Shown here: positions 7,726 through 56,444 of the stretch, one piece after another
How positions within the stretch are numbered: the stretch's first letter is position 1
How the letters are laid out: each line of letters begins with the position of its first letter
DNA from: Candidatus Bathyarchaeota archaeon
Lineage (GTDB): Archaea > Thermoproteota > Bathyarchaeia > Bathyarchaeales > Bathycorpusculaceae
Assembly: GCA_963768425.1 (NCBI GenBank)
Contig: CAVYHV010000017.1
Span: forward strand, 225,552-289,551
Direction of reading: 5' to 3'
Length of the DNA stretch: 64,000 nt
Position numbers and translations under genes: made by a program
The notes under the pieces: model-generated
Told to the model about the DNA's origin: nothing
The model's database searches: none
What the model saw: the letters and a program-made list of their open reading frames with translations, nothing else

Positions 7726-9192
7726 GTGAAAGCTCACGTAGTACTTGCTAATCCACCTTATCCTGAAGATGTGCCGCAAGCCGTCTTCATTCCGCTAGGC
7801 ATCAGCTACCTTGTCGCTGTCCTCGAGCAGAACGGGTACGAAGTAGACGTCGTTGATTGCCAAGTAGCTAAACTCAGCCAAAAGGACCTGGAATACAAGT
7901 TCCGAAGCCTCAAACCCGACATAGTCGGGGCAACAGCCGCAACCGTAACTTACTATCCAGCGTTGCAGGTCCTCAAAGCAGCCAAAGCCGCCGTGCCCAA
8001 CTGCTTAACCCTCATCGGTGGCCCCCACGTTACCGTTCTGGACGAGCGCACCTTCACCGACAGCCCAGACGTAGACATCGTCGTGCGGGGCGAAGGAGAA
8101 CAAACCATGCTCGATCTCGCACGCTTAGCATCAGAGGGCAACCTGAAAAGTCTTGGCGAAGTTTTAGGCATCACATTCAAGAGAAACGGACAAGTCATCC
8201 GCACAGCCGACCGACCCTTCCTTGAAGACATCGATACGCTTCCTTACCCGGCGCACAAGCACTTTGACGTAACCAGATACAGAATCAACGGCAAGCTCTA
8301 CATGCCCATAATAACCAGCCGCGGATGCCCGTTTAACTGTGCTTTCTGCTTAGCATCAAAGATGTGTGGAAAAGGCTTCAGGGCACGAAAACCCAAAAAA
8401 GTGGTGGATGAACTCGAGTGGCTCAGAGATACTTTTGGGGCAGGAGCCTTCGCCTTCTATGATGATACATTCACTTCTGACGTTCCGCGGGCAATCGCTA
8501 TCTGCGACGAAATGAAAGCAAGAGGGTTCGACATGCCGTGGGACTGCCGAACAAGAGTTGATAAAGTCTCTAAACCTCTGCTGGACAAGCTTCAGAGCAC
8601 AAACTGCCAGCTCATCCATTTCGGGGTCGAATCAGGCAACCAACAACTGCTCAACACTATGCGGAAGGGCACAACAGTTGAGCAAAACGCAAATGCAATT
8701 AAACTGGCGAAGGAAGCAGACATTTTGGTCGCGATATCGCTTGTGATTGGATACCCAGGCGAAACCCCGGAGATGCTTAAGCAAACCGTGGATTTCATCC
8801 GCAAAACTAAGCCTGACTATGTCTACATGTGTGAGGCCGTTCCCTATCCAGGCACCCAGCTTTATGATTACGTGAAGGAGTTGGGATTGGAGTTTTCAGA
8901 GAACTGGAATCTTTACCATGAACAGATGCAGGTTTTCAAGAACACGTTGCTGCCGCTGGAGAAGCTAGAGCAGACCAAAAAGCGGGTTTACGACGGCGTC
9001 TTCACGCCAACATATTATTTGCGGATGAGGCGAAGAGGAGACTTCCACAGCCAAATCATGGCTCGCATGGCCCTAAACCATCTCGTTTGGAAGTACAAGG
9101 CTACAAGATGGGGATTTAGGCAACTGGGCAAGGTCAGACACGTCAAACAGAGTCCAGGCGGGCACAGTACCCCAAGCAAAGATCAAGAATAA
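7726..9192 (+). CDS. Cobalamin-binding (class B) radical SAM enzyme
   Basis: PLGISYL...GGPH B12-binding domain; SRGCPFNCAFC; GVESG. Confidence 0.92.
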   Translation: MKAHVVLANPPYPEDVPQAVFIPLGISYLVAVLEQNGYEVDVVDCQVAKLSQKDLEYKFRSLKPDIVGATAATVTYYPALQVLKAAKAAVPNCLTLIGGPHVTVLDERTFTDSPDVDIVVRGEGEQTMLDLARLASEGNLKSLGEVLGITFKRNGQVIRTADRPFLEDIDTLPYPAHKHFDVTRYRINGKLYMPIITSRGCPFNCAFCLASKMCGKGFRARKPKKVVDELEWLRDTFGAGAFAFYDDTFTSDVPRAIAICDEMKARGFDMPWDCRTRVDKVSKPLLDKLQSTNCQLIHFGVESGNQQLLNTMRKGTTVEQNANAIKLAKEADILVAISLVIGYPGETPEMLKQTVDFIRKTKPDYVYMCEAVPYPGTQLYDYVKELGLEFSENWNLYHEQMQVFKNTLLPLEKLEQTKKRVYDGVFTPTYYLRMRRRGDFHSQIMARMALNHLVWKYKATRWGFRQLGKVRHVKQSPGGHSTPSKDQE

Positions 9193-9198
9193 AAAAGC

Positions 9199-11841
9199 TT
9201 AAGACGGCTTAACAGCCGACGGTTTTTCAGTTTTCTTTTTGTTTGCGTAGCTAGCCGTGAATAGCGCGATGATGGCAACCGTGGCGATACCGACAACTCC
9301 TAGGACTAAGTCATGTCCAACTGCAACGTTGTTTGATGAAGTGGCGCTTGAAGGTTGCTCAGTGATGCCTTCGGTGAAGCAGTAAATGTTCCAGTCGTTG
9401 CATCCGATGTAAAGCATTCCGTTGGCAATTGCTGGCGATGACCAGCTGCTTGATGGACTGTAGCCTGTTGCGATTTTTTCACCGTTTTTGGTTGTGTCTA
9501 AGATGAGGATGTGGCGTTCGCTGGTTGCCATGTAGATTTTGCCATCAGCGTAGGATGGAGAAACGTATAGTTCGTCGCCTGTGTAGGCGCTCCAGAGTTC
9601 ATGTCCGTTGGCTGCGTTGAGGCAGGCGATGTTGAATATGTCGAGTATGTAGAGGTTGCCGTTTTCGTAAATTGGGGAGGAAACGATGAATTCGGTGGCT
9701 CTGGTGTTGATGAAATCCCATACGAGCTCGCCGGTTTCAGCGTTAACGGCGTAGTATGCTCCGAAGTCTGAGGCTGCAAAAACCATGCCTGCTGCAACGC
9801 ACGGGGATCCAAGCATCTCTGTGCCGCCGAGGAACGAGTGCATATAGGGAATAGTGAAGTTCCACGCCATGTTCCCAGTGGTAGCGTCCAGTTTGTATAG
9901 CATGCCTGCTGAGGGCAGCTGAGAAGTGAAGTAGACTGCGCCGTCTGAGTAGGCTGGAGAACACTCGATGGGTCCACCCGCAGGGGTTTTCCATACCACC
10001 GCACCTGTGTTTGCGTTAAGAGCATAAAGGTTCCCGTCCAAAGAGCCAATGAACACTATACCGCCAGATACCACTGGCGACGATGTAAGCATCAGGTTCG
10101 CGTAGGTGAAGTGTAAGTTGCTGCCGACCGAGGTTTGCCAGTTCAATGCGCCAGTTTGAGCGTTGAGGCAGTAGAGGTAGCCATCGTCACTCTCAATGTA
10201 GAGCATCCCATCTGCAACTGCAGGAGAATCTTCAATTGAGCCGCCTGTGGCGTATTTCCAGACGAGTTTGCCGCTGTATGCGTCGAGGGCATAGACGTTT
10301 TTGTCCTGCGAACCAGCGTAGACTATCCCGTTCACGACAGCAGGCGAAGAGATAACTGAACCATCAGTGGTGAATTTCCAAGCTATCGTAAGGTTTGATG
10401 GACCTTGAGCGGCAGTGGAAGAGTGAGCTGGGTCAGCACGGAACATAGTCCAGTTACTTGCGGCTGAACTTATAATCGGCGTCAAAGCTGGAGTCGGCGT
10501 TGGCGTAGCTGCCGGGGTTGGGGTGTTTGAGGGAGTGGGTGCTTGGGCTGAGCCACCTATCGCCCATAGTTCATTATTCGTCGAGTACTCTGTACCCGAT
10601 GTTGTGTCCACAGCCGCCGTTACGTTCCCTGGAATAATGTACAAGTTCCCATATGCTACAATCGCGGATTCGCGAGGAGCTAGCGCTTCAATAGGAAGCG
10701 TCCATATGGTTTGTCCGTTGTAAGCGTTAATACAAGCGTACTGAGAAATCTGCGCAGGTCCGTTGTACGCTGCGTATTGGCCTGTCGTTACATATATTTT
10801 TCCGTCTGCAACAGTTGGCATTCCCGGCCACAGAAAGTCGTTGTCTGGGCTCTTATACTTCCAGATGAGTGCACCAGTTTTTTCATTTAGGGCGTAGAGG
10901 TAGCCGTCTTTGTTCATTTCGTAAACTGTGCCGTAAGCGATTGCTGGCCCCGTAGTGAAGTACCCGTCAGGATCTGAAGGAGGTGTGTAAGTCCATACGA
11001 TTTTTCCAGTAAGCGCGTCGAAACAGTACATCGTGTTGTCATCTGTTCCGCCTCGGAAGAAGAGACCGTCCGAGTAGGCGCCGTCAAAAATCATGGGTCC
11101 TTTCGTGAGTGTATCCCAGATGATTTTTCCCGTCGTCGCGTTGAGCCCCAACTGCTGGTTTTCAAATGAACCCGCAAAGACCATGCCGTCACCGTAGGTT
11201 GTTCCGATGCCTGCTTGTCCTCCGCCTGGAATGTAGGTTGTCCAAGCCACGGTCGGCGGTTTCGAGGGGTCAGCAAAGTTCCAAGCGACGATGTATGAGT
11301 TGGCTTTTACGTAGAACATTTTAGTTTCTGGGCTGTACACGTTGGAGGTGAAGATTCCTGTATCAGCGCAAAATGATGTGCTGGTCCACAGGATTTTGCC
11401 GGTGGATGGGTCAAGGCAGCTGCCTTCCGTAACCAAGTGGGAAGAATCTATTTCATAGGCTATTGGCCAAGTCTTATTCAAAGGAATTACGGTGCTCCAA
11501 GCAATCTGGCCAGCCTGATTTACAGCAACCATTGAAGTGTTCGTGCCCACGAATATGAGCCCATCGAAGGCTGCTAGGTCGGGTTGGATTCCTGGCACGT
11601 TAGTTTTCCAAAGTATGCTTGGCATGTTAGGTGCCGGTCCTGCTGAGAAGCGGGTAAATGATTCATCTCCCTGGAATTGGGGCCAATCATACTGATTCAA
11701 GTTTGTTGAAGTTGTGCCACTAGTCGACTGAGCCCTTGCATTCAGTTGGAGGGTTGATATTGAGGCGAAAAACGAGGAAACAAGAAGCAGACTTAGAATG
11801 GATATGACTAGGATTTTTTTGCGGATCAATAGCACCTCCAA
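9199..11841 (-). CDS. PQQ-like/BamB-type beta-propeller repeat surface protein (two propellers, C-terminal TM anchor)
   Basis: Signal peptide; WPQFQGD and WTMFRAD closure motifs; repeated YALxAxTGxxxW; PT linker; C-terminal TM + KKK. Confidence 0.88.
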   Translation of the reverse strand: MEVLLIRKKILVISILSLLLVSSFFASISTLQLNARAQSTSGTTSTNLNQYDWPQFQGDESFTRFSAGPAPNMPSILWKTNVPGIQPDLAAFDGLIFVGTNTSMVAVNQAGQIAWSTVIPLNKTWPIAYEIDSSHLVTEGSCLDPSTGKILWTSTSFCADTGIFTSNVYSPETKMFYVKANSYIVAWNFADPSKPPTVAWTTYIPGGGQAGIGTTYGDGMVFAGSFENQQLGLNATTGKIIWDTLTKGPMIFDGAYSDGLFFRGGTDDNTMYCFDALTGKIVWTYTPPSDPDGYFTTGPAIAYGTVYEMNKDGYLYALNEKTGALIWKYKSPDNDFLWPGMPTVADGKIYVTTGQYAAYNGPAQISQYACINAYNGQTIWTLPIEALAPRESAIVAYGNLYIIPGNVTAAVDTTSGTEYSTNNELWAIGGSAQAPTPSNTPTPAATPTPTPALTPIISSAASNWTMFRADPAHSSTAAQGPSNLTIAWKFTTDGSVISSPAVVNGIVYAGSQDKNVYALDAYSGKLVWKYATGGSIEDSPAVADGMLYIESDDGYLYCLNAQTGALNWQTSVGSNLHFTYANLMLTSSPVVSGGIVFIGSLDGNLYALNANTGAVVWKTPAGGPIECSPAYSDGAVYFTSQLPSAGMLYKLDATTGNMAWNFTIPYMHSFLGGTEMLGSPCVAAGMVFAASDFGAYYAVNAETGELVWDFINTRATEFIVSSPIYENGNLYILDIFNIACLNAANGHELWSAYTGDELYVSPSYADGKIYMATSERHILILDTTKNGEKIATGYSPSSSWSSPAIANGMLYIGCNDWNIYCFTEGITEQPSSATSSNNVAVGHDLVLGVVGIATVAIIALFTASYANKKKTEKPSAVKPS

Positions 11842-12055
11842 TTGTTAATTACTTGCGCATCTCTGATTAAGAGGTTAACGCTTTGGCACACGTCTCTTTA
11901 TGTTTGGTTTCACTATAAACTTTACGGAAACACCTTTGCTTGCATCTTTCCGCTGCAAAATTGCAGAAAAATGCTGTTTCAGCGAAAAATGCAAACTTGA
12001 GAGGTTACCGCACAATCTTTTTTAAGTTGAAACGAAACCTTAACTTAAATAATGA

Positions 12056-13153
12056 ATGGGCGAGAGGGTGGATTTTGGCTTGACGAATAAGGGTCCTTTA
12101 CTTATGACTTCTTGGAGGGCAACTGGCGCATGTAACGCCCGCTGCAGATACTGCAACGTTGACGCCACAGGCGCCAAAGCCCCCAGGGAACTCACAACTC
12201 AAGAAGCCTTCCACCTTGTGGATGAAGTGACAAAATTCGGCGTTCGCTGGTTCGGCATCAAAGGCGGCGAACCACTCACACGCCCAGACATCTTTGAAAT
12301 CACCAAATACGCCAAAAGCAAAGGCCTCAACGTCTGTCTCCTCACCAACGGCGCCTTCGTCGACGGCTCTATCTACGACAATCTGGTCAGAGACCAAATC
12401 TGGACCAGCGTCAGCATTGACGGACCAGAAGAAATCAACGATCAACTCCGAGGCAAAGGCAGCTACCGCAAGGCGTTAGCCGCCATCGATAAACTTAGCA
12501 AGGGCAAAATCCTCAACGGCTTAGCCTGCGCCATAACCACCATAAATTACCAGCATCTCGACCACGTTTGCGAGTTGGCTGAGAAGTATCACGCGAACTT
12601 TGTCTGGTTCAACCACCTTGTCCCCAGCGGAAGAGCCAAGGAAATGGAGGACCTTACCCCCTCGCCCGAACAGTACGAGTGGGTACTTAACCATATTTGG
12701 GACCTCACCGAAAAATATGAGGGCAAATTCGAAATCCACGTCCACTGCCCCCACTTCGCCCGAGTCGTCAAAATGCGCGGCATCCCAAACTTCGATGAAT
12801 GGTACGAACATAAGTTCCACGGCAAATGCACCTACTTCGCTTTCGGCGGCTACGTGTCCGTCACGGAGAACGGCGACCTCATCCCATGCTTCTACACCGA
12901 TCTCACACCAACCGAACACCAGCGGCTAGGCAACATCCGAAACAAATCGTTGCAGGACGCCTGGAAAGAAGTTAAAGCCTCACCGTTCTACAGCAGCTTC
13001 CAAGACCGCAACCTACTCAAGGGCAAATGCGGAGTATGCGAGTACCGTGACCTCTGCGGAGGATGCAGAAACCGCGCGTACGCTTATACAGGCGACATGT
13101 ATGCTGAAGACCCCGCTTGCGCTTATATCCCTGAAAGCCTCCGTAAGAAGTAG
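12056..13153 (+). CDS. Radical SAM/SPASM-domain protein (NirJ/AhbD/PqqE superfamily)
   Basis: CNARCRYC, GGEPL; SPASM motif CGVCEYRDLCGGCRNRA...DPAC. Confidence 0.92.
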   Translation: MGERVDFGLTNKGPLLMTSWRATGACNARCRYCNVDATGAKAPRELTTQEAFHLVDEVTKFGVRWFGIKGGEPLTRPDIFEITKYAKSKGLNVCLLTNGAFVDGSIYDNLVRDQIWTSVSIDGPEEINDQLRGKGSYRKALAAIDKLSKGKILNGLACAITTINYQHLDHVCELAEKYHANFVWFNHLVPSGRAKEMEDLTPSPEQYEWVLNHIWDLTEKYEGKFEIHVHCPHFARVVKMRGIPNFDEWYEHKFHGKCTYFAFGGYVSVTENGDLIPCFYTDLTPTEHQRLGNIRNKSLQDAWKEVKASPFYSSFQDRNLLKGKCGVCEYRDLCGGCRNRAYAYTGDMYAEDPACAYIPESLRKK

Positions 13154-13222: not shown

Positions 13223-15499
13223 ATGAAAGCAGCAGCCTTTATTTTGACTGTGCTGTTTTTGGTTTGTGCCGTTTTGGGAAGCGCCGCTTCTGCAAGCCAA
13301 CAAAGTCCCATTGCTTGGCCGATGTTTCATGGCGACCTCACCCATTCAGGCAGTTCCAACTCGGCGGCTCCGACGACGAATGCGACTTTGTGGAAATTCA
13401 ATACGGGCGGGCAGGTGGATTCGCCAACGGTTGTCGGCGGAGTAGTTTACGTGGGTTCGTTTGACCATAAAATCTACGCTTTCAACGCGTCAGATGGCTC
13501 AACCATTTGGAGTTACAAAACGGGCGGAGTAGTGATTTCCCGTCCCGCTGTCGTCAACGGCGTCGTCTACGTGGGTTCAGAAGACCACAACCTCTATGCC
13601 CTAAACGCCGCAACAGGCGCAAAACTTTGGAATTACACAACTGGATACTACGTTGACTGCGATCCAGCTGTCGCCAACGGGATAGTTTACTTTGGGTCTG
13701 AAGACCACAACGTCTACGCCCTAAGCGCTGTTACAGGAACATACTTATGGAACTACACAACTGGAAACAAAATTATGTTGTCCTCACCAGCGGTGAGCAA
13801 CGGAATAGTTTACATAGGATCAGAAGATGACAAAATCTACGCCTTGAACGCCTATAACGGCAACTACATATGGAGTTATGCGACAGGCAACCAAGTCGTT
13901 TCTTCACCATCTTTAAGCGGCGGGGCAGTTTACATAGGTTCAGATGACGGCACAGTCTATGCTTTGGACGCGGTTAGCGGCAAACCGATTTGGAAATTTT
14001 CATCTGGTGCGGCAGTCTACTCATCACCTTACGTAAGTAATGGGATAGTTTACGTGGGTTCAACAAACAGCAAAGTGTATGCGCTGAACGCTTTAAACGG
14101 AAAGATTGTTTGGGATTTTATAACGGGCGGTGCAGTTGCTTCTTCCCCAACATGCGTCGGAGGAACTGTTTACGTTGGGTCGGAAGATAGCAGGGTTTAC
14201 GCTTTGAACGCTGCAAACGGAGGATTGCTTTGGAACTACACGACTGGCGACATTGTGATTTCACATCCAGCTTTGGCGCAAGATCTGATTTATGTTGGCG
14301 GATGGGATGGCAAACTTTACGCTTTAAACGCTGCGGACGGCAAACTCGTTTGGAGCTTTGCAACTGGAGGGGAGATCGATTCGTCCCCGACTGTCTCCGG
14401 GGGTTTAGTGTATGTAGGTTCGCATGATGGCTCAGTATACGCTTTGAATGCTTCCACGGGAATGGTTGGTTACAACTTGGAAATGCACAACAACGTTGTC
14501 TGGAGCTACACGACCCAAGGCATGATTCTGTTTTCATCTCCAGCGGTGGCCGACGGCATGGTTTTCGTGGGTTCCTACGATGATAACGTTTATGCATTAA
14601 ACGCTACGACAGGTGCTTTCATTTGGAGCTTCAAAACTGGCGACCCCGTGGTTTCTTCGCCCGCCGTAGAAAAAGGCGTGGTCTACTTTGGCTCAGAAGA
14701 TCACAAAGTCTATGCATTAAATGCTTCTAACGGCTCGTTGGTTTGGCAGTTCGCTACCCTCGGTCAGATAACCGTGTCTTCAGCTGCAATCAACGATGGC
14801 AAAGTTTACATCGGCTCTAACGATGGAAACGTCTACTGTTTGGATGCTTCAAATGGAGCTATAGTCTGGAAATATGCAACTGAGGGATACGTGGTTTCTT
14901 CCCCTGCGATCGCGAATGGTGTGCTTTACGTTGGTTCATACGACAATGAAATTTACGCCCTAAATGCATCAAGCGGGAAGCTTATTTGGAAATACGCCAC
15001 AGGAGGCAGCATTGCATCGTCGCCTGCAATAGCAAACGGCTTAGTCATTGTAGGGTCAGGGGACAACAAGGTTTACGCGCTGGATGCATCCGACGGCAAA
15101 CTCGTCTGGACCTATACAACTGGCGGGCAAGTTGCCTCTTCCCCAGCGGTGTCAAATGGAGTGGTCTACGTTGGCTCCTATGACGGCAATATTTACGCTC
15201 TTAACGCCAAGACAGGCGCATACATTTGGAGCTTTGCAACAGGGGAAATGGTGGTTTCGTCACCCGCCATAGCCGACAACGCGGTTTACGTCGGCTCATA
15301 TAATAACATGCTCTACGCGTTCGGTTCATCATCAACCGGTGCACCAACCAAATCGGAGACCTTGCAGCCAACAATTGTTTTGTTAGTTTTTGTGATAATA
15401 GTGATAATTCTCGCTTTAATCCTGCTGCAGGTAATCGGTCCTTTTAGAAAGAAGAAAAAGCGGCTTATTTTTCGACGAGTTCAGCTTTGGCTATGTTGA
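13223..15499 (+). CDS. PQQ-like beta-propeller repeat surface protein (16 blades, C-terminal TM anchor)
   Basis: 16 copies of an ~40-aa unit WxYxTGxxVxSSPAVxxGxVYVGSxDxxVYALNAxxG; signal peptide; TM + RKKKKR. Confidence 0.9.
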   Translation: MKAAAFILTVLFLVCAVLGSAASASQQSPIAWPMFHGDLTHSGSSNSAAPTTNATLWKFNTGGQVDSPTVVGGVVYVGSFDHKIYAFNASDGSTIWSYKTGGVVISRPAVVNGVVYVGSEDHNLYALNAATGAKLWNYTTGYYVDCDPAVANGIVYFGSEDHNVYALSAVTGTYLWNYTTGNKIMLSSPAVSNGIVYIGSEDDKIYALNAYNGNYIWSYATGNQVVSSPSLSGGAVYIGSDDGTVYALDAVSGKPIWKFSSGAAVYSSPYVSNGIVYVGSTNSKVYALNALNGKIVWDFITGGAVASSPTCVGGTVYVGSEDSRVYALNAANGGLLWNYTTGDIVISHPALAQDLIYVGGWDGKLYALNAADGKLVWSFATGGEIDSSPTVSGGLVYVGSHDGSVYALNASTGMVGYNLEMHNNVVWSYTTQGMILFSSPAVADGMVFVGSYDDNVYALNATTGAFIWSFKTGDPVVSSPAVEKGVVYFGSEDHKVYALNASNGSLVWQFATLGQITVSSAAINDGKVYIGSNDGNVYCLDASNGAIVWKYATEGYVVSSPAIANGVLYVGSYDNEIYALNASSGKLIWKYATGGSIASSPAIANGLVIVGSGDNKVYALDASDGKLVWTYTTGGQVASSPAVSNGVVYVGSYDGNIYALNAKTGAYIWSFATGEMVVSSPAIADNAVYVGSYNNMLYAFGSSSTGAPTKSETLQPTIVLLVFVIIVIILALILLQVIGPFRKKKKRLIFRRVQLWLC

Positions 15500-16235
15500 G
15501 AACCGCGAATCCTTTCCTGTGGATCACGTTGCTCTTAAGCACTTTGAGGCGTTTCTTGAACAGCGGAGCGTCGTTGACAAGCGTGTGAAACTCGATGTTG
15601 CTTATGGCAGTGCCCGTTTCCTTGCTCTTGTTTCGAATTGCCTGCAAGAATTCAGCGTCGACTTTTCGGCCCAACCATTCTTCGCCCAGAAAGTCAGTGT
15701 CCACGACAATGATTGTTGCTTCGTAGCCTTTTTGTGTGAAATCCGCCAGGTTCTGGTCTTCCCCCTTTCCTTTCAGCGGGAAAATCATTTTGACCTTTAG
15801 CTCTTCGCATATTGGAGTAAGCATAGACATGTGGACGGCGGCTTGGTCTTCTTCAGCGCCCCAAGCGATTCCTTCGACAGGAGGGTTTAGCTTGCTGATT
15901 GTTGCTTTGAATTGGTCCACAAACCCTGCCATGGAGATTTCGGGTTGAACAAGTGGAAGACCCATTGCCTTTGCCTGCAACGCGATAATTTCAGGGTTGA
16001 CTTCGTGTGGGACATCCTTGTAAGGCTTCATCTTTGACAGCTTCATTAGAACCGAACCCGCTAGGCTCTTGATCCTATTTGGTTTGGGTCGTTCGGCTTC
16101 TTTGAATACGAAGTTAATCAGCGAAGTAACGTCGTTTCCTTCTGAGATAGCGCCTTGACATGCAAGGTAGCTGTCTTTACCCCCAGTCCACATTGAGGCA
16201 ACTCTCAAAATCTTCCCCGAAGAAGCGTCACCCAC
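15465..16235 (-). CDS. Diphthine--ammonia ligase (Dph6/ATP_bind_4)-like PP-loop protein, divergent
   Basis: WTGGKDS PP-loop; HEVNPEIIALQAKAMGLPL; WLGR; EFHTLVNDAPLFKKRL. Confidence 0.8.
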   Translation of the reverse strand: MGDASSGKILRVASMWTGGKDSYLACQGAISEGNDVTSLINFVFKEAERPKPNRIKSLAGSVLMKLSKMKPYKDVPHEVNPEIIALQAKAMGLPLVQPEISMAGFVDQFKATISKLNPPVEGIAWGAEEDQAAVHMSMLTPICEELKVKMIFPLKGKGEDQNLADFTQKGYEATIIVVDTDFLGEEWLGRKVDAEFLQAIRNKSKETGTAISNIEFHTLVNDAPLFKKRLKVLKSNVIHRKGFAVLNIAKAELVEK

Positions 16236-18056: not shown

Positions 18057-18186
18057 GGCGCTTGGTAACCAATAGCTTGCCGAATCAAATTGTGCTTTTT
18101 TCGGAGACCTACGGTGCACAAGCACTTTTTACATAACATTTATTATGTTATCGAACCGTTTTAAAGGTAAAATCGAGGGGACTTGG

Positions 18187-29536: not shown

Positions 29537-30448
29537 ATGTCCTTTAAATTCAACACGAAACAAAATATTTACACGGTTGGAAAAGCTAAAGTAGGCGGTC
29601 AGCCAGGAGAACTACCGACTTTTCTGATTGGTTCCATCTTTTGGCTCGGCCAGAAAATGGTTCAAGACGCAAACAAGGGTATTTTTGATGCAAAGGCAGC
29701 AGAAGACATAATCAACACTATGCAGACGCAAAGCGACATTACTGGTGTACAGTTCGCTTTTGACATTGTAGGAACTACTGATATGGCCTTTGAAAAATAC
29801 ATCGATTTCGTTGCAAAACACAGCGACGCACCTCTTATGCTCGATGCTATGAGCCCAAAGACACGTATGACGGCAGCTACTATCGCAAAGAAGATGGGCC
29901 TTGCAGACCGGTGTCTCTACAACTCAGTCTACAAAGGTGTGACTGATGCGGAACTGGCGAATTTGAAAGAAAGCGGCGTCAAAATGTCTATAGTGCTTGC
30001 TGATGACCCTAAAGATACCACAATGGAAGGTAAAATGAAGGTCATCCAGGAAGCATTAGCGTTGGCAGAAAAAGGCGGAATCACTAAGCCTTTGATTGAC
30101 ACGGCTATTCCCGCCTTCGCTCCAGACATGGGTACTGCGGTTAGAACAATACCGATCATGAAAGAGAAGTACGGTCACCCAGTAGGCTTAGGCAGCGGAA
30201 ACGTTGTCACAACCATGGGTTGGGTTAAAGCAAACGTCGCGAAAGAATTCCGCCCCGGGTGCAGAACCTCAACCAACTCTATCATGCAGACAGTAGGCGC
30301 TAACTGGCTTATGATTGGACCCGCAGAGCAAGCAGAATGGATTTTCCCCGCCGTTGCAATAACTGACACATACATTGCTTCAGCCGCAGGCGACCTTGGA
30401 ACTAGACCAATAGACGAGACTCATCCAATCTACAAAATGTTCATGTAG
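29537..30448 (+). CDS. mtrH: Tetrahydromethanopterin S-methyltransferase subunit H-like (MtrH/MtxH/MtgA family)
   Basis: VGGQPGELPTFLIGSIF, YNSV, KPLIDTA, KYGHPVG, HPIYKMF. Confidence 0.9.
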   Translation: MSFKFNTKQNIYTVGKAKVGGQPGELPTFLIGSIFWLGQKMVQDANKGIFDAKAAEDIINTMQTQSDITGVQFAFDIVGTTDMAFEKYIDFVAKHSDAPLMLDAMSPKTRMTAATIAKKMGLADRCLYNSVYKGVTDAELANLKESGVKMSIVLADDPKDTTMEGKMKVIQEALALAEKGGITKPLIDTAIPAFAPDMGTAVRTIPIMKEKYGHPVGLGSGNVVTTMGWVKANVAKEFRPGCRTSTNSIMQTVGANWLMIGPAEQAEWIFPAVAITDTYIASAAGDLGTRPIDETHPIYKMFM

Positions 30449-30500: not shown

Positions 30501-30893
30501 CTGAAGCCTCTCACATGGTTTGAAATTATTGTTGCCTTCACAGTCTTAACGTTAGCAGTAACTTATCTTATTCCCGGCGACTCGTTGTTTGCCGTTTTGC
30601 GTTATGTTTTCGGTTTTGTATTTGTTGTTTTTCTGCCAGGCTACTGTCTAATCAACAGTCTCTTCAGGGGTAAAAACAGGATTGACCCGGTTGAGCAGGC
30701 TGTTTTGTCGGTGGCTTTGAGTTTTGGTTTAGATGGTTTGGCAGGTTTGTTTTTGGGCCTTTCTCCTATAGGCATTAACTTTACTTCGATAACGGTATCG
30801 CTTACCGTGATTGTGCTGGTTTTCGCTGCTGTTGCGCTTCTGAGAATGTTAAGAGAGCCTAATGTGCAGAGCCCTGAGCAAGTAAGCTCCTGA
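30501..30893 (+). CDS. DUF1616-like membrane protein
   Basis: LRYVFGFVFVVFLPGY...E...LSVALS. The frame is open upstream of 30585 with an extra TM helix, so a CTG start at 30501 is plausible. Confidence 0.7.
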   Translation: MKPLTWFEIIVAFTVLTLAVTYLIPGDSLFAVLRYVFGFVFVVFLPGYCLINSLFRGKNRIDPVEQAVLSVALSFGLDGLAGLFLGLSPIGINFTSITVSLTVIVLVFAAVALLRMLREPNVQSPEQVSS

Positions 30894-32234
30894 AGTTTTC
30901 ACCGCTGACTTCCCGTATGTCCCGCCTTTACGCATCATGTGGAAAACGTATCCTGGGCGGAGGTAGAATTGCTGGTAAGCCTTGTAGCGGATCTCCGCAA
31001 GTTTCTCCATGGTCAGCCACGGAGTTTCAAAAGTTGGTCCCGCCGTGTCGTATTTATCGAAGTCTGTGACTCTCAGCCACCCGTTATTCTTAACTTGCTC
31101 GTACATGGGTGTTCCAGGATACGGAGTGGCAACGTAGAACCCCACGTCAGCAAGGTTAAGTTCCTTGACAAAGCGGATCGTTTCTTTTGCTGTCTGTTCA
31201 GTTTCACCTGGAAAACCTAAAACAACGTTCCCAATAGTCATTAATCCAACTTCATTGGCTGTTTTGAAGGCTAAGCGTGTCTGGTCAAGCTTGATTTTCT
31301 TGTTCATCTTACCCAATATGGCTTCTGAACCTGACTCAACGCCCATCCAAACAGCGATGCAGCCAGCATTATGCATAGTTTTGAGCATTTCTCGGTCAAC
31401 CATATCGACGCGTGTGCCGCAGTCCCAGGTCATGTTAAGTTTTCTGGTGTGGAGTTCCTCGCATATTTTGAGGACCCGATCCCGGTTAACTGAGAAGGCG
31501 TCGTCGTAGAAGGTGACTTGGTCTACTCCGTATTTGTCGTGCACGAACTGCATTTCGTCAACAACGTTTTTGGGGCTTCTGAAACGATATCCTCTGCCGA
31601 ACATGCGCACTGTGCTGCAGAAGTCGCACCAGTATACGCAGCCTCGGCTTGTGATAAGCGGAAACAGGATCTTCCCCATTCTTTTGAGCGAGTCAAGCGG
31701 GAGTAAATGATGAGCGGGAAAAGGAAGCGAATCCAAATCCTCCAAAAAAGGCCTATCCTCAGTACGCACTATTGTACCATCTTTTGCTCGAAAAGTTACT
31801 CCTAGCACGCCAGCGAGGCTGTCTCCGCTTTGCAATTTGTTAAGCAATTCGATGAATGTTATTTCGCCTTCTCTACGCACGACAACGTCAAGGCTCGGGT
31901 ATTCGTGCAACGCATTTTCATCCCAGAAGGTTCCGTGGCTTCCGCCGAGCATAGTGATGGCTTGCGGGTGAGCTTCCTTGGCTATGTTTATGAGTTGCAT
32001 GGCTGATTTGTAGAGAAGTGTGGTGGCTGTTACACCAATGACGTCCGATTTTAACTGGCCAATTTTCTGCTTGAAAAGATCGTATGTTAGCCTTTCAGCT
32101 TGGCAATCGATGATGTTGACTTCATGCCCAGCCTTTTCAGCTACAGCGCCTAGGTAAGCAAGGCCCAGCGGGATAAATGGCGGGTGCGAGTGCACATGTA
32201 GCGGGTAAGGGGGATTAACCAAGGTAATCTTCAA
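30849..32234 (-). CDS. Cobalamin-binding (class B) radical SAM enzyme
   Basis: LKITLVNPP, IPLGLAYL, GGSH, SRGCVYWCDFC, GVESG; likely TTG start at 32234. Confidence 0.92.
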   Translation of the reverse strand: MKITLVNPPYPLHVHSHPPFIPLGLAYLGAVAEKAGHEVNIIDCQAERLTYDLFKQKIGQLKSDVIGVTATTLLYKSAMQLINIAKEAHPQAITMLGGSHGTFWDENALHEYPSLDVVVRREGEITFIELLNKLQSGDSLAGVLGVTFRAKDGTIVRTEDRPFLEDLDSLPFPAHHLLPLDSLKRMGKILFPLITSRGCVYWCDFCSTVRMFGRGYRFRSPKNVVDEMQFVHDKYGVDQVTFYDDAFSVNRDRVLKICEELHTRKLNMTWDCGTRVDMVDREMLKTMHNAGCIAVWMGVESGSEAILGKMNKKIKLDQTRLAFKTANEVGLMTIGNVVLGFPGETEQTAKETIRFVKELNLADVGFYVATPYPGTPMYEQVKNNGWLRVTDFDKYDTAGPTFETPWLTMEKLAEIRYKAYQQFYLRPGYVFHMMRKGGTYGKSAVKTSGAYLLRALHIRLS

Positions 32235-32564
32235 TCTAGATACGCTCTTTAAGTGACTGCTTTGTACGTTAAGAAGAATTATATAGTTTTCTAGATAAAG
32301 CACAAAAACAATAAACAAACAGGTTAAGGAGTTTTCGAGGCATCACACTAATTTTATTGGCTTACTCTTGCTTTTTGTGTCTTTTTTTTACAATAACTAG
32401 AACAATCTAAGGCAGATAATACCTCGTTTGACTTGTTTGATTTTTTAATGTCCACTGCCAACAAGAAAGTTATCAAATGTTGTTTGTTGGTACAGCCATA
32501 ATCTAAGATTGCGTTGACACTGATTAATTAAAAAGTAAAAAAGAAGAACAATAATAGGTTTCTT

Positions 32565-32758: not shown

Positions 32759-33664
32759 CTATGCTTTCAGCATCTTTTCCCATCGGTTGAAGAGCTCTAA
32801 GACTTCGTCGCCGCCGTGACCCTTAAGGAACTCACGTGTTTCTTTGTCTGCGACTGCGTTCTTTTGGAACTCTTGTATCCACTGGGCTTTTTCAGCGAGG
32901 AAGATTATGCCGTCTATGCCTGTTCTTGCTGCGCGTGTAGCTACCGTCATGATTTGCTTTGTCGGTGCAACTGTGTCCCAAGTTTCGTTTGGACCTCTGA
33001 CATAGAAGTTCACGTAGACTGGTTTTTTGAGGAAGCTTTTGTAGCCTCTTGCGATTGTTTCCCAGTACCATGGGGTCGGATATGCCTTGCTGAACATTGG
33101 GATTACAAAGTAATCAGCGTACTGTGCCATCGCTTCGAAGTCGTAGCCAAACCGCATCTTGCCCAGCAACGGATCAGGCAGGCAGTTCACGAAAAGCGGC
33201 TTGTTTTTGACGACGTCGCGAACTTCGCTAAGGAATTCGGTGACGGTTTTGGCTCGCCAATCAACCCAGTTTAATCCGCTTTGGCGCCATTGTTCAACGC
33301 AGCGTGGGCAGGTGCAGAAGTCGCGTTCAGCAAAGTGTTGGCTGCTGATGCTTATGCCAGGGGTTTTTTTCGCTGATTCAGCGATAATTTTGAGGTTGTA
33401 TTCTCTGGCTTCTGGGTTAGTCATGCATACGACGTCCCAGCGGAGGTTGTATTTTTTGTTGGTGCGCAGAGCTGGTCCGTCTTTGCTGATTGAGACCCAG
33501 TCTGGGCGTTTTGCTGCCATAAAGTTGTCGCCGAAGCAGGCGATGTTAGTGTACATTTCAGGGTTGGGTTTTCCAACGATCCCAGATTCGGACTTCAAAC
33601 GGTAAAAGTTGTAGTCAACGCCTTCAACGGGCTCTGGTTGATAGAGAAATACGCCAAATTTCAC
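32759..33664 (-). CDS. Hypothetical Cys-rich protein, glycoside-hydrolase-like TIM barrel
   Basis: VCMTNPEAREY and FCTCPRC motifs typical of GHL/DUF187-like barrels; paralog of 35070..35954. Confidence 0.7.
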   Translation of the reverse strand: MKFGVFLYQPEPVEGVDYNFYRLKSESGIVGKPNPEMYTNIACFGDNFMAAKRPDWVSISKDGPALRTNKKYNLRWDVVCMTNPEAREYNLKIIAESAKKTPGISISSQHFAERDFCTCPRCVEQWRQSGLNWVDWRAKTVTEFLSEVRDVVKNKPLFVNCLPDPLLGKMRFGYDFEAMAQYADYFVIPMFSKAYPTPWYWETIARGYKSFLKKPVYVNFYVRGPNETWDTVAPTKQIMTVATRAARTGIDGIIFLAEKAQWIQEFQKNAVADKETREFLKGHGGDEVLELFNRWEKMLKA

Positions 33665-33732
33665 TTTTGATACACCATCGTAACAATTGTTTTACCAACG
33701 AATAAAAGTGCAAGTTATTTAAGTCTTTTCAG

Positions 33733-34773
33733 TTAAGCCTCAGAAACAGCTTTCCTCACAATTCTGATTAGAACTTGTTTTAGTATAGGGGGCAAATCAA
33801 CTTCCTCATAACTTGGCACTTTAGAGCAAGACCCTGCGGTGCTGGTTAGGTTACCGAAGCATTTGCTTAACGTTTCAGCATCGCCAAGCTCAGCTGGCAG
33901 CAGGTTCTTCTTAACATCGTCATCTATCTTTGCCGCCGCCAACAAAAAAGATAGGGCTACGGGGCTGTTCTTTAGAATTTCAGCCAAGCCTTCGGTGTCA
34001 ACCTGTAATCCTTCGACTTTAGATACTTCAGTCGCAAGCTTCTCAAGTGGAAGATGTCTCTCTTTCAACCTATCCAATACTGTTCGGCAACCCCAAATTG
34101 GCTCTTGTTTGATCAGGGCTTCCGTTACGGCTTTCCTAGTGCAGTACCCGACAACTTTGCCAAGCTTTGACGCTGGACCACCATAACTGATAACTTTGCC
34201 TTGGCAAGGCGACGCAATGGCGACGCTGTCGGTTATTGAACCAGTAGCTGAGTCCCCTGTATACAGGCTTCGGACATCAAAATCTCTTAGCGCCGCTGAT
34301 TTGGCTTCCGTAGCAGTAACAACTGACGCTACCATGCAGCTCTGCGTTGGGTTAGCGTCGATTAGCACGATGACGTTTATGGTGCCCTTTGAGATTTCTT
34401 GGACATTCATTTCTTCGCCTGAGGATTCTCCATGTGAACAGCCTGCTGTTGCGGCTACACTTACGGAAAAATCAGCTGTTTTCTTTTGGACTAAGCTGTA
34501 GTTTTTGATTTTGGCAGCTGTCACCATGCCGACGTAATCTTTAGTTAACCCGAGCTTAGCGGCAGATGAAGTGATAAGTTCCAGCGGGTCAAGGTGCAAG
34601 GAACGGTCATTATACCCTTCCGGCACCCCTACATTGAGGACAGCGTTTGCTTGTCTGTTCCCGCCATTAAATATGGCTGAACTAACTACACTTAAAGGAT
34701 TATCACAAATTACGGCTAGTACGTTTTCTTTTATTACAAGTTTGATGCCGTCTGCAAGATCTGCCTGTTCCAT
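33733..34773 (-). CDS. cbiZ: Adenosylcobinamide amidohydrolase
   Basis: SSAIFNGG, GMVTAA, ATAG, GTINVIV, TATEAK, ATGSITDSV. Confidence 0.88.
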   Translation of the reverse strand: MEQADLADGIKLVIKENVLAVICDNPLSVVSSAIFNGGNRQANAVLNVGVPEGYNDRSLHLDPLELITSSAAKLGLTKDYVGMVTAAKIKNYSLVQKKTADFSVSVAATAGCSHGESSGEEMNVQEISKGTINVIVLIDANPTQSCMVASVVTATEAKSAALRDFDVRSLYTGDSATGSITDSVAIASPCQGKVISYGGPASKLGKVVGYCTRKAVTEALIKQEPIWGCRTVLDRLKERHLPLEKLATEVSKVEGLQVDTEGLAEILKNSPVALSFLLAAAKIDDDVKKNLLPAELGDAETLSKCFGNLTSTAGSCSKVPSYEEVDLPPILKQVLIRIVRKAVSEA

Positions 34774-34798
34774 GCCAGCCTATCGCCTTAACCACTTG

Positions 34799-35008
34799 TT
34801 AGGGTTTGCTAATAGTAATGGCTTTTGCTGGACACAAATTTACACAGACACCACATAAAGTACACTCGACAACATCAACAATCTGCGGTTTCCTGTTTTT
34901 GCCCTCTTCAAAAACGCCTTGGGGGCAAACGCCGACGCAAATGAGTCCTGCGCAGGATGTGCATTTAGAGGCATCTATAAGAATAACGGATTTCTGCAGT
35001 TTGCCCAT
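34799..35008 (-). CDS. 2x[4Fe-4S] ferredoxin
   Basis: CTSCAGLICVGVCP and CTLCGVCVNLCP. Confidence 0.88.
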   Translation of the reverse strand: MGKLQKSVILIDASKCTSCAGLICVGVCPQGVFEEGKNRKPQIVDVVECTLCGVCVNLCPAKAITISKP

Positions 35009-35069
35009 CGGAATCAAGATTTAAGAAAGCACCAAGAATATATTGTTTGCGCGCATCAAATAGGAGAGT

Positions 35070-35954
35070 ATGCAGATAGGTTTGGTTACTTACAAGCCCG
35101 AAAAAGTCGAGGGCTACGACCTTCATGTTTACTACTCGAAGTGGACGGACGGACAAGCTTTCCCTGCCGCAAAAGGCATGCAGAACGATGTCACAGTTCT
35201 TTGTGACGCCAAAGCATTAAGGGAAGATCCAAGTCTCGTCGCAATGTCAAACACTGGACCGGCGCTACGCAAGAACAGGCGGTCAAATTTGGCCTTTGAT
35301 TTTGTCTGCCCAACACACCCAGCTTATCGAGTCAAAGCTTTAAACTACATAGAAGGCCTAAGCCAAGAAAACATTTTGGGCGTTACTCTGAACCTTTATC
35401 ATTTTCCCGACCAAGAGTATTGTGTTTGTCCACGATGCGTGGAAAAATGGAAGCAAAGCGGTTTAAGCTGGACACAGTGGAGGGCTCAAACGGTTACTGA
35501 ACTTTTGCAGGAAGCCAAAGAACTTGTAAAAGGAACTTTTGCTGTGGAAATTTACCCTGACCCCGTGCTTGCTAAAGAACGCTACGGCTTGGACCTTGCT
35601 GCAATAGGGGATTTGGTCGACTACTTCCACGTGCCGCTTTCCTCACGAGATTACTTAACTAACTACTGGACCATCATGTTGGCAAGGGATTTTGCAGCGT
35701 CTTTGAAAAAACCCGTTGTTGTGGAGTTAAGCGCTGAAATGCCCACTGACGAAAAACTTGAAGCACTGTTGAAAACGGTGGCTTACATTTCCAGGCACGA
35801 GTTGGATGCGGTGCTGTTGCTGGTGCATGATTCTGAGAACGCCAGGCAAGTCTGCAGGTATGCGGTAAACAACAGTGACCTTAGAGATTGGCTGGAAAAA
35901 TACGATTTTGGGGAAATGAACCGAATCATCGACGGCTGGGCTAAACTGTACTGA
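35070..35954 (+). CDS. Hypothetical Cys-rich protein, glycoside-hydrolase-like TIM barrel
   Basis: VCPTHPAYR, YCVCPRC, QSGLSWTQWRAQTVTE; paralog of 32759..33664. Confidence 0.7.
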   Translation: MQIGLVTYKPEKVEGYDLHVYYSKWTDGQAFPAAKGMQNDVTVLCDAKALREDPSLVAMSNTGPALRKNRRSNLAFDFVCPTHPAYRVKALNYIEGLSQENILGVTLNLYHFPDQEYCVCPRCVEKWKQSGLSWTQWRAQTVTELLQEAKELVKGTFAVEIYPDPVLAKERYGLDLAAIGDLVDYFHVPLSSRDYLTNYWTIMLARDFAASLKKPVVVELSAEMPTDEKLEALLKTVAYISRHELDAVLLLVHDSENARQVCRYAVNNSDLRDWLEKYDFGEMNRIIDGWAKLY

Positions 35955-36693
35955 GTTTGCTTCGATATTCTTTCAGCCGCTGCATGTCGAGGTCTCGGGT
36001 CAAAATCGAATCTTTTGGCGCGTCGGTTACTTCTCCAAGTATGCCCCAGGGAGCAATGATTGCGCTTCTTCCGCCCCTCATGTTTGAACAAACATTGCCC
36101 ACCTTAAGCAGGAACAAACCGAAGTTGCGTGCAATTCCCTCCGTCAACGGGTGACCTTTGACAACTGGATGAGTGCCCATTGCTGCCACTGGAAGAGAAA
36201 TGATTTCTGCACCCATAGATGCAACACGCTTAACAAGGTCAGGGTCAAACGAATCAGCACAAACCAGCAGCCCGATCTTGCCGATCTCCGTATTAACCAC
36301 AACTGGTTGGCTGCCTCTGGCGACACCGGCGTTAATTTCAGCTCTTATAGGGTTTATCTTCTTATATTTAGCTAAGAGAGAACCGTTTTTCCACAGGGTG
36401 CTTGTGTTGTAGTATTGTCCCCTGTCTTCTTCGAGTACTGTGCCACCTAGAAAGTAGATATTGCCAATCTGCTTTGATTCTTGTTGCAAGAAGTTGAGGG
36501 TTTCTCTGCAGGTTTCTTGAGAGATTTTTTTCGCGTTCGTAAAGTCTGCCATGCAATTGGGGACAGTAAAATATTCAGGGAGCGCAATTATTGCTGGTTT
36601 TTTCTTTGCGGCTGAATCAACGGCGACCTTGGCTGCGTCTATGTTTGCTTTGAATGTGCTACGGATTTCCATATGAAGTATGCTTACTTTCAC
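35941..36693 (-). CDS. Carbon-nitrogen hydrolase (nitrilase superfamily)
   Basis: Catalytic triad LPEY / YKK / VCAD; GRSAIIAPWG. Confidence 0.9.
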   Translation of the reverse strand: MKVSILHMEIRSTFKANIDAAKVAVDSAAKKKPAIIALPEYFTVPNCMADFTNAKKISQETCRETLNFLQQESKQIGNIYFLGGTVLEEDRGQYYNTSTLWKNGSLLAKYKKINPIRAEINAGVARGSQPVVVNTEIGKIGLLVCADSFDPDLVKRVASMGAEIISLPVAAMGTHPVVKGHPLTEGIARNFGLFLLKVGNVCSNMRGGRSAIIAPWGILGEVTDAPKDSILTRDLDMQRLKEYRSKLSTV

Positions 36694-36913
36694 GTTCTAT
36701 CCTCTGTCCTCTTAAGCTGGATTATGACTGACAATTTTTGACTTTTAAATGTGATGTATTGCTACGCATAGGTTTTTCCATTCCTGTTAGATGGCGTCTG
36801 TTCAGTATTTTGTTCACTTTCAGCACATATGTTTACTATTTCTCGTCTTTTGTATGCAGACGGTAAACTTAAATACTTGTAAAATGAAAAGCAATATATT
36901 GCGAGGAAAAGAA

Positions 36914-37894
36914 ATGACGCTAGACCCTTCAGAATATAACAAGCTCTTACCACAAATCAGAACATTAGTAAACAAATGTGTCAAGAAAAACATGGCTGAC
37001 GGCTTCTTGTTTTCAGCTGGAACCGACACTCAGATAATTGCTTACGAAGCGGTAAAATACAAACCTGATATTCCATGCCTAACCTTAGCGTTCAAACACG
37101 GAAGCCCAAAAGACACCGAATACGTCAAGCGCATGGTAGAACTCTTGCACTTAAAACAGGAGACCTATCAGTTCGGCAAAGAAGACGTTATGAAATACTA
37201 CCCCAAAGTCGTCGAAGCGCTCAAAAAATTTGACCCCATGGAAATCAGAAACAGCCTTCCAGTCTACATCGGCTTAACAATATTCAAACCCAAAGGAATC
37301 AAATCCGTATTCACAGGTGATGCATTAGACGAGCTTTTCGGGTACCCATGGCAATTCCACCTATCAGAAGCTGAATTCGCAAAGAAGCAACAGGAAATGT
37401 GGGCAGAAATGGGTTTCTCCTCGTTCCCAATGGCGGAATCTCTTGGAATGCAAATCAAGGCACCATATCGAGACCCAGAATTCATGGATTGGGCAATGAA
37501 GCTACCTATCAAATACAAGATCAACATGTACAACGGAGTAAAATATAGCAAATGGATATTGCGCAAAGCCTACGAAGACGTCATACCTATGGATGTCATC
37601 TGGAGACCCAAAGCTCCTCTTGAACAGGGAACAGGAACAGAAACACTGAGAACATACTTCAACGACATGATCCCCGACAAGGAATTCGCGGACAAAAAGG
37701 CAGCAATCAAAGCGGCAGATGACGTTGAAATCCAAGACAAAGAACAGCTACTCTACTACGAAGTCTTCCGCAAAAAGTTCGGCAAACCAAAAGACGTCTT
37801 CCCTGACAACGGCGGCATTCAATGTCCAAAATGCAAGAGCCACATTAAGACAAAGATTCAGTTCTGCAAAGTTTGCGGAGCTTACCCCATCTAA
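36914..37894 (+). CDS. Asparagine synthase-like PP-loop protein with no glutaminase domain and a C-terminal zinc ribbon
   Basis: FSAGTDT, FDPMEIRNS, TGDALDELFGY, KWILRKAYE, WRPKAPLEQGTG; CPKC...CKVCGAYP. Confidence 0.85.
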   Translation: MTLDPSEYNKLLPQIRTLVNKCVKKNMADGFLFSAGTDTQIIAYEAVKYKPDIPCLTLAFKHGSPKDTEYVKRMVELLHLKQETYQFGKEDVMKYYPKVVEALKKFDPMEIRNSLPVYIGLTIFKPKGIKSVFTGDALDELFGYPWQFHLSEAEFAKKQQEMWAEMGFSSFPMAESLGMQIKAPYRDPEFMDWAMKLPIKYKINMYNGVKYSKWILRKAYEDVIPMDVIWRPKAPLEQGTGTETLRTYFNDMIPDKEFADKKAAIKAADDVEIQDKEQLLYYEVFRKKFGKPKDVFPDNGGIQCPKCKSHIKTKIQFCKVCGAYPI

Positions 37895-56443: not shown

Positions 56444-56444
56444 G

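Follow-up and report, generated by a model that had tools for sequence, protein, structure and literature searches.

Gene content of the locus

We analysed a 64,000-nucleotide stretch of contig CAVYHV010000017.1 from the assembly GCA_963768425.1 (hereafter, the window), a genome that homologue names put in Bathyarchaeia, and within it the genes from position 7726 to 37894. A first-pass annotation, made from the sequence alone, had presented these genes as a 30-kb locus of radical S-adenosylmethionine (SAM) and corrinoid enzymes. When the window proteins were compared with Pfam and NCBIfam, with curated NCBIfam cut-offs used for family membership, all of the listed genes were present and their families were confirmed. 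Judged by orthology, the core of the locus is the published Bathyarchaeia lignin O-demethylase: the corrinoid protein is MtgC, the 'MtrH' protein is MtgA and the two cysteine-rich barrels belong to the MtgB family. With moderate confidence, we read this core and the genes around it as a 'methyl and cobamide' island, whose genes are inherited together in one Bathyarchaeia lineage and fall into three modules.

The core occupies the right-hand part of the region (strands in brackets). MtgC (29090–29518, +) is a cap-less, 15.1-kDa corrinoid protein with a DMH motif, followed by MtgA (29537–30448, +), an MtrH-family protein that would act as methyl-corrinoid:tetrahydromethanopterin (H4MPT) methyltransferase, and by a small DUF1616 membrane protein (30585–30893, +) in the position of the 'membrane protein' of the published cluster. 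The B12-binding radical SAM protein B12c (30849–32318, −) separates these from the MtgB_2 orthologue (32759–33664, −), a putative O-demethylase MT1 with a Cys4 TIM barrel of the GH153/Cwp19-like fold. Then come a CbiZ adenosylcobinamide amidohydrolase paralogue (33733–34773, −), a 2[4Fe-4S]-type ferredoxin (34799–35017, −), a third-clade MtgB-family barrel (35070–35954, +), a nitrilase-family amidase with E-K-C triad motifs (35941–36693, −) and an AsnB-like PP-loop amide ligase (36791–37894, +), which lacks a glutaminase domain and has a C-terminal Cys4 ribbon. Four cysteines, C80, C117, C119 and C122, are invariant in the barrels.

The left-hand part brings the radical SAM enzymes to six, in three classes and with one CxxxCxxC motif each: two more B12-binding enzymes (B12a, 7726–9192, +; B12b, 16649–17995, +), which like B12c are Gmm-like candidates, two AhbD-like SPASM enzymes (SPASMa, 12056–13153, +; SPASMb, 22975–24057, +) and a HemN/HutW-like enzyme (18145–19489, +). 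Beside B12a lies a PQQ_2/BamB-type double β-propeller with hydrophobic segments at its N and C termini (9199–11841, −), divergent from a SPASM gene also in the relatives G003, G014, G001, G151 and G195 (G000 is the genome holding the window and C17 its contig; other G-numbers are relatives' genomes and L-numbers fetched loci). A second PQQ_2 propeller, recognized by Pfam, follows (13223–15499, +). The other PP-loop protein of the region, a Dph6/DUF71-like ATPase of degenerate DUF71-B12 type (15465–16235, −; motifs TGGKDS and IEFH), has no orthologue at the same place in the relatives' loci examined. An orphan RnfD-like membrane protein fused to an RnfC-type 2[4Fe-4S] domain (20697–22091, −), a candidate low-potential electron module, lies next to a 222-amino-acid (aa) membrane protein of no family that is usually found beside the RnfD-like gene (19849–20517, −). 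The remaining genes encode a membrane-anchored protein of no family, probably of helix-turn-helix type by our own reading of the sequence (22361–22927, +), and two GT-C-like membrane glycosyltransferases, A (24242–26653, −) and B (26662–28971, −), the latter divergent from mtgC. Neither tRNA nor tmRNA was found in the window.

The HemN-like gene is read in two frames (18145–19350 and 19265–19489) owing to a frameshift near 19240–19350; its orthologues are intact at 427–448 aa, and the break is probably an assembly error. Single frameshifts break many other genes with intact orthologues (SatP, MetK, Tes, both CobS genes and two B12 radical SAM genes), both in the window (18145–19489, 43136–43585 and 45097–46455) and upstream of it (C17:187500–218200), and these are probably assembly errors too. 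RNA contigs from four runs in two studies cover the 222-aa gene, rnfD, SPASMb, mtgC–mtgA and the AsnB-like gene at 95–99% identity, indicating presence only; sparse coverage of the GT-C genes carries no weight.

A published O-demethylase at the core

The available text of Yu et al. 2023 (PMC10989822) describes a cluster of mtgC, mtgA, a membrane gene, mtgB_1 and mtgB_2 in Ca. Baizosediminiarchaeum ligniniphilus, in which MtgB_2 methylates Co(I)-MtgC from guaiacol and vanillin; it gives no fold. The cloning primers of that study, translated by eye, encode MKFGMFIY...DKWESILD for MtgB_2 and MSWLKSMM for MtgC, and our comparison is with these readings. The window MtgC begins with an identical MSWLKSMM. 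The barrel at 32759 begins with MKFGVFLY, and its orthologues in a second family begin with MKFGMFIY, as the MtgB_2 primer does. Sizes agree (301 aa against about 300 aa for MtgB; 15.1 kDa against about 15 kDa for MtgC, from 1.2 mg/ml = 79 uM), the paralogues of MtgB share 45.6–45.8% identity here against a published 44.85%, and the published gene order recurs in G040, G169, G207 and G115. Length, only weak matches to DUF4015 and DUF4838, and primer termini that fit its clade identify the barrel at 32759 as the MtgB_2 orthologue, just as N terminus, mass and an adjoining MtrH-family gene identify MtgC. The combination of genes, which had seemed to belong to no described pathway, has a described core. 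The barrel at 35070 forms a separate clade (support 99) at 33% identity to the MtgB_2 orthologue and outside published groups 1 and 2; it may be published group 3.

The MtgB barrel is predicted to be a TIM barrel with a predicted local distance difference test score (pLDDT) of 95.9; its nearest structural matches are PgaB and Cwp19 (Z 20.8 and 20.6), and its invariant cysteines are likely to form a metal site. Given the match to published MtgB, a reading of the window barrels as glycosidases or unknown B12-salvage enzymes was rejected. A B12-helper reading may be valid outside the order, where six loci (G050, G042, G070, G090, L056 and L057) have a single-copy homologue flanked by btuF and btuC; the single-copy homologues of all three f35 loci stand in unrelated contexts. 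When one barrel was used to scan named genomes, two loci were recovered, and a wider profile search gave 39 proteins at E ≤ 1e-30.

Some of these homologues have further B12-related neighbours. In two loci of another family (L048:9469–10964 and L050:9209–10706), a single MtgB-like gene is divergent from an adenosyltransferase open reading frame (ORF) that a sequence motif marks as PduO-like, a further B12 link. In other lineages, the B12-uptake clusters at L056:7808–13234 and L051:8492–13537 have the barrel together with one to three more radical SAM genes, activase-like or SPASM-like, in the interval from btuF to btuC. Stand-alone MtgC paralogues (L098:7760–8200, L099:7382–7822 and L100:7901–8359) lack the axial histidine, DIMTT or DIMDT replacing DMHDT.

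Extent and co-inheritance of the island

The clustering seen at first pass is real, but its extent was underestimated: the 30-kb locus is the right-hand part of an island of about 75 kb, which starts about 37 kb upstream of the window and 45 kb upstream of position 7726. That upstream 37-kb stretch adds six B12 radical SAM genes, three DUF71 genes, CobT, two CobS, two CobY, CobD and CbiB, together with an epimerase, GT2/GT4 glycosyltransferase genes, a UbiA prenyltransferase and Tes. Nine of the 17 B12 radical SAM genes of G000 thus fall within 76 kb, or 2.6% of the genome, a clustering far above chance. The paired paralogues that had been remarked on are present too, in part as a genome-wide expansion, with propellers matching 10 contigs.

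Thirty-six relatives gave a match; for 10 of them, picked for long contigs, neighbourhoods of 40 kb around mtrH were compared. Both GT-C genes, the corrinoid gene, cbiZ and the AsnB-like gene are kept near mtrH in all nine same-genus neighbourhoods, both barrels and the nitrilase in eight, and B12c in seven. The same gene set lies near mtrH in G040, from another family, with its order reshuffled. In longer fetches the island is in one piece in G003, G014, G040, G207, G195 and G166; it is divided into separate blocks in G001, G008, G151 and G229. Gene content is retained despite shuffled order between families at 45–65% identity, and a functional island is supported by this linkage and co-inheritance in two families; the scattered, unlinked homologues that would have spoken against the locus were not what the synteny comparison found. 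A quick tree of the B12 radical SAM paralogues, which took in 64 of 66 rows (minimum length 380 aa, frameshifted copies excluded), has orthogroups that span both families; the paralogues are therefore old and separately kept, and recent tandem duplication is rejected as their origin.

In an even draw of 201 genomes of the class, at least 85% complete, MtgC occurs in 30: G000 (91% complete), 23 of 31 in its family (f1) and six of 10 in a second, related family (f7). The same 30 genomes contain the strong GT-C pair, with weaker homologues in six others, and all 30 contain the AsnB-like ligase, which is found in 23 more. A variant CobS is present in 27 of the 29 MtgC genomes other than G000 (22 in the first family, five in the second), and MtgC, the GT-C pair and the variant CobS are jointly missing from eight f1 and four f7 genomes. 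Adding G001, G003, G008 and G014 gave 34 MtgC-positive genomes, which were set against 28 hand-chosen MtgC-negative ones (24 of the same order, four from outside it); as the positives come from two related lineages and are not independent, the counts describe a pattern and not a statistical test. The SPASM clade is present in 34 of 34 positive and 0 of 28 negative genomes, and the B12 radical SAM clade in 34 of 34 and 6 of 28.

The housekeeping genes for MetK, a GPN GTPase and CinA travel with the island. The bacterial-type MetK (45097–46455; TIGR01034, score 487 against a cut-off of 309) lies in or beside it in eight of nine other neighbourhoods of the genus and at the split block in G001. 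An ADP-forming acetate–CoA ligase with a GNAT domain, an AMP-forming acetyl-CoA synthetase and an acetate transporter adjoin the island at 38051–43585, where relatives carry an HtpX-like gene; the housekeeping part at 53501–58018 includes a kynureninase/SufS-like aminotransferase and a lipoate–protein ligase. The available text of PMC11697101, which describes the radical SAM and PQQ expansions of Bathy-6 with no mechanism, reports conserved genes around mtgA–mtgC, counts of 7–20 B12 radical SAMs in each genome and one subclade that has lost MtgB.

An RnfD-like protein as candidate activator

The activating enzyme of MtgABC is absent or unidentified in the available text of PMC10989822; that of PMC10477458 likewise leaves it unidentified and notes that Moorella manages without one. 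The RnfD family is present in 32 of the 34 MtgC-positive genomes (the two misses are 90% and 92% complete) and in none of the 28 negative ones, and the reverse trend holds for RACo (PF14574), found in two positive and 14 negative genomes. Because of these opposed distributions, the RnfD-FeS protein is a candidate for the activating enzyme reported missing. G000, at 91% completeness, has no RACo/RamA domain (PF14574).

The RnfD-like protein would serve as a low-potential electron supply. Its C205 and H232 are invariant, and the flavin-threonine motif of flavinylation is absent. Searches of five island genomes found no RnfA/E (positive controls matched in 4 of 14) and no ApbE flavin transferase (positive controls matched in 8 of 14). 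Relatives carry RnfD-FeS, an RnfD-FeS-FrhB fusion or RnfD with a separate full RnfC (variants at L034:10184–12340, L030:1660–3831 and L029:7247–9693), exchangeable forms that suggest swappable electron donors. Stray rnfC/rnfD genes of Bathyarchaeota appear, with no role given, in the available text of PMC9534799. PduS was considered as a precedent for an RnfC-type corrin reductase, a case weakened by PMC11275729, which reassigns PduS, and the structure prediction of the fusion (mean pLDDT 54.7) was not used.

Altered cobamide genes

DUF71-B12 is described as a candidate salvage family in which ENGE(F/Y)H replaces the EGGE-x-E of Dph6 (PMC3541065, available text). The window DUF71 protein has NIEFH, with the histidine kept and the rest degenerate, and fails the NCBIfam Dph6 cut-off (94 against 197); an upstream paralogue has EGGEYH. 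The second CobS has a D-to-N change in its HxDGxxDxxD motif and has lost the M-x-D motif in both families, and the island CbiB carries ENLxDFxLSP in place of the ExxxDG of single-copy genes. Since these changes are conserved, an altered substrate is suggested for both enzymes.

Cobyric acid synthase CbiP was found in none of the 41 genomes of the two families (0 of 31 and 0 of 10) and in 11 of 201 overall; cbiD occurs in 21 of the 41 (19 and two). Neither gene was found in G000, and G000, G003 and G207 hold the island without cbiD. By our own reading of ORF starts, the de novo clusters of G040, G014 and G229 contain a CbiA-like gene and no CbiP-like one. The AsnB-like ligase and the nitrilase are candidates for the missing step, with mixed support: the AsnB-like gene lies within about 3 kb of cobS in four more genomes (G041, G132, G138 and G176), and seven of 10 other AsnB-like loci fetched have no B12 or DUF71 neighbour. 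The ligase was rejected as a strict replacement of CbiP, being present in one of 11 cbiP-positive genomes and there adjoining cbiP, and is kept as a lead.

Radical SAM enzymes and the envelope

No radical SAM protein of the region reaches the cut-off of the named NCBIfam families tested, namely AhbC/AhbD, NirJ, PqqE, BchE, HpnJ, BzaD and HemN/HemW/HutW (for example AhbD 220/500, BchE 265/481, BzaD 139/450 and HutW 158/400). Garcia et al. (PMC11214058, available text) identify Gms by its homology to AhbD, its additional 100 aa and its clustering with grs and gmm; in Bathyarchaeota they find gmm2 in multiple copies. Related lipid chemistry appears in the available texts of bioRxiv 2025.10.20.683597, PMC11186832 and PMC13459092 (the last without mention of butanetriol dialkyl glycerol tetraethers, BDGT), and PMC12694404, likewise seen as a partial text, ties BDGT to one genus. 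The upstream SPASM at C17:199248 has an N-terminal extension of about 100 aa ahead of an AhbD-like core and is 47% identical to a Gms-like protein over its length. The window SPASMs lack the extension, their residue 10 aligning with residue 111–116 of a Gms-like protein.

The B12 radical SAMs (448–489 aa) are B12-binding and exceed the 400 aa of the Gmm definition. Those of the window are 37–42% identical to a Gms-adjacent B12 relative (B12a 37%) and form a neighbouring group. The E-values obtained, 1e-98 to 1e-111, are to this Gms-adjacent proxy and not to a true Gmm; the definition asks for E ≤ 1e-65 to T. guaymasensis Gmm. Seven loci of MtgC-negative genomes show the surroundings of the closest B12 relative: a Gms-like gene lies beside it in three (G033, G059 and G088) and cobamide genes in none. 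The 'Grs-like' label of the G033 neighbour, based on an N-terminal motif, was not confirmed by NCBIfam. A position beside a Gms-like gene is that of gmm itself (PMC11214058), which supports a Gmm-type reading, and the three window proteins are most likely Gmm2-type tetraether lipid methylases.

Tes passes its cut-off (465.6 against 450) and is single-copy in G000. The GT-C-like proteins of the window have no Pfam match, but their family profile matches AglB (E 6.8e-8, over about 150 positions only). STT3 Pfam models match none of 23 family members, and some members match DUF6798, PMT_2 or DUF6541. For the propellers, no catalytic quinoprotein model passes its cut-off except the generic BamB, for one.

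Three modules or one product

The favoured explanation is that the modules share a need for cobamide, SAM (MetK is adjacent) and reductant, and not one product. In the catabolic module, to judge from orthology here and activity in a relative, MtgB would transfer the methyl group of guaiacol- or vanillin-type aromatics to the cob(I)amide carried by MtgC, from which MtgA would hand it to H4MPT for acetogenesis. In the cobamide module, CbiZ, the DUF71 ATPases, the AsnB-like ligase and CbiB, CobD, CobY, CobS and CobT would salvage and finish the cofactor, the nitrilase possibly providing ammonia for the ligase, and the RnfD-FeS protein would supply low-potential electrons, whose most plausible use is the re-reduction of cob(II)amide in both MtgC and the B12 radical SAMs. 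In the envelope module, B12 radical SAMs would act as Gmm-related tetraether lipid methylases beside Tes, a DGGGP-synthase-like prenyltransferase, a Gms-like enzyme and GT2, GT4 and GT-C glycosyltransferases.

This differs from the first-pass proposal of a single pathway that multiply methylates and amidates one product. That proposal is not supported: the corrinoid protein, MtrH and the barrels are catabolic MtgABC, which removes methyl groups, CbiZ and DUF71 belong to B12 salvage, and the order is shuffled or split into blocks. Of its candidate products, tetraether lipids and a corrinoid each match one module.

Several points weigh against our three-module explanation. The presence/absence pattern comes from two related lineages; four MtgC-bearing f1 genomes (G006, G017, G112 and G142) have no MtgB match and G008 none beside mtgA, so that the island persists without the first catabolic step. 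The roles in the second and third modules are assigned from enzyme families. The Gmm comparison used a proxy, and the tree favours no single placement of the joint (p-AU 0.47); two window SPASMs lack the Gms extension; the SPASMs, HemN-like enzyme, propellers and GT-Cs are given no substrate; and, as in Moorella (PMC10477458), an activating enzyme is not always required.

A bolder reading is tentative at best. The lineage would have swapped two standard B12 functions for novel ones, with RnfD-FeS(/RnfC/FrhB) as an ATP-independent, possibly ion-gradient-driven activator of MtgC replacing RACo, and the AsnB-like ligase, nitrilase and DUF71 replacing cobyric acid synthase and, with variant CbiB and CobS, finishing a cobamide peculiar to this lineage; MtgB would derive from a glycosidase-fold protein of B12-uptake clusters.

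The strongest rival, which we consider unlikely, gives most of the island to the making of a single cobamide, specific to the lineage, for use by MtgC. The AhbD-like, HemN-like and B12 radical SAMs would alter its ring or lower ligand, PP-loop ligases would amidate it, and variant CbiB, CobD, CobY and CobS would attach an unusual nucleotide loop. The CobS and CbiB motif changes, CbiP missing from 41 genomes of which 21 have cbiD, and the btuF–btuC barrels all fit this idea, but Tes, prenyltransferase, Gms-like and glycosyltransferase genes share the island, the closest B12 relatives elsewhere lie near Gms-like genes in three of seven loci and near cobamide genes in none, and three genomes keep the island without cbiD. 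A little less likely again, unrelated modules entered or were retained as one ancestral block, their co-distribution reflecting shared descent only; confinement to two related lineages, the four genomes with split blocks, the accompanying MetK, GPN GTPase and CinA, and the genome-wide expansion of propellers and B12 radical SAMs agree with this, whereas content retained through reshuffling at 45–65% identity and the joint absence of three markers from 12 genomes do not.

A mainly catabolic island, in which lignin or aromatics derived from it would be the substrates of the radical SAMs and propellers, is improbable. This proposal of PMC11697101 (available text) draws on physical linkage to mtgABC. 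Against it stand the SAM consumption and normally biosynthetic role of B12 radical SAMs, the close B12 relatives beside lipid genes in MtgC-negative genomes, and the absence of any catalytic quinoprotein model above cut-off other than generic BamB for one propeller. Least probable, by a shade, is decoration of a surface glycan with C-methyl and amidated sugars by the radical SAMs, ligases and GT-Cs: distant GT-C homologues do lie in GT2/GT4/epimerase clusters (three of three loci fetched) and the best PDB sequence match of B12c is the sugar-acting AprD4 (E 2.8e-31), yet Gms-adjacent relatives match far better (E about 1e-110) and PP-loop proteins elsewhere have DUF71 or cobS genes as partners.

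Bathyarchaeia are abundant and demethylate lignin anaerobically, and the island offers a small candidate set for two published gaps, the MtgABC activator (PMC10989822 and PMC10477458) and the multi-copy Gmm-like genes of Bathyarchaeota (PMC11214058), as far as the available texts go. It exposes a third, no cobyric acid synthase being found where cbiD is present. MtgB gains a predicted fold and a likely metal site open to mutation, and an annotation trap is corrected: the barrels resemble glycosidases or B12 helpers, yet are the lineage's signature O-demethylase family. In a literature that leaves out most subscription papers, we found none that links an RnfD-like gene to MtgC, notes the CbiP gap or gives the MtgB fold. 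The opposed RnfD and RACo pattern is new here; MtgABC and its conserved neighbourhood were already known.

Comparison with known systems

The closest known system is MtgABC of Ca. Baizosediminiarchaeum ligniniphilus: its MtgC, MtgA, membrane protein and MtgB_2 have orthologues that lie together in this locus too, and no RACo-type activator was found in either case. Here, the MtgB_1 orthologue maps to another part of the contig (C17:54471), mtgA and mtgB are separated by a B12 radical SAM gene, and a third-clade barrel is added. The Bathy-6 neighbourhood of PMC11697101 (available text) has in common the conserved mtgA–mtgC surroundings and the radical SAM and PQQ expansion. With the GH153 PgaB/Cwp19/GH42 barrels, MtgB would share a fold (Z 20.8, root mean square deviation 3.3 Å over 267 aligned residues) at only 10–17% identity, its orthologue being reported as a methyltransferase.

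Like Rnf/Nqr (RnfD, RnfC) and PduS/MNdh, the RnfD-FeS protein combines an RnfD-family membrane domain and an RnfC-type FeS domain, with full RnfC or an FrhB fusion in relatives; it differs from Rnf/Nqr in the absence of RnfA/E and ApbE from all five genomes searched and in its invariant Cys205 and His232. The gms–gmm–grs cluster and the Gmm2 clade (PMC11214058 and PMC11186832, available texts) are matched by the extended upstream SPASM and by multi-copy B12 radical SAMs related to Gms-adjacent genes, whereas the window SPASMs have no extension and the genes are tied here to Tes, cobamide genes and MtgABC. All families of archaeal cobinamide salvage with DUF71-B12 (CbiZ, CbiB, CobD, CobY, CobS and CobT) occur in the extended island, histidine replacing the Dph6 glutamate; what sets the island apart is its doubled, motif-altered CobS and CbiB, its four DUF71 paralogues, the lack of a detectable CbiP and the additional AsnB-like ligase and nitrilase.

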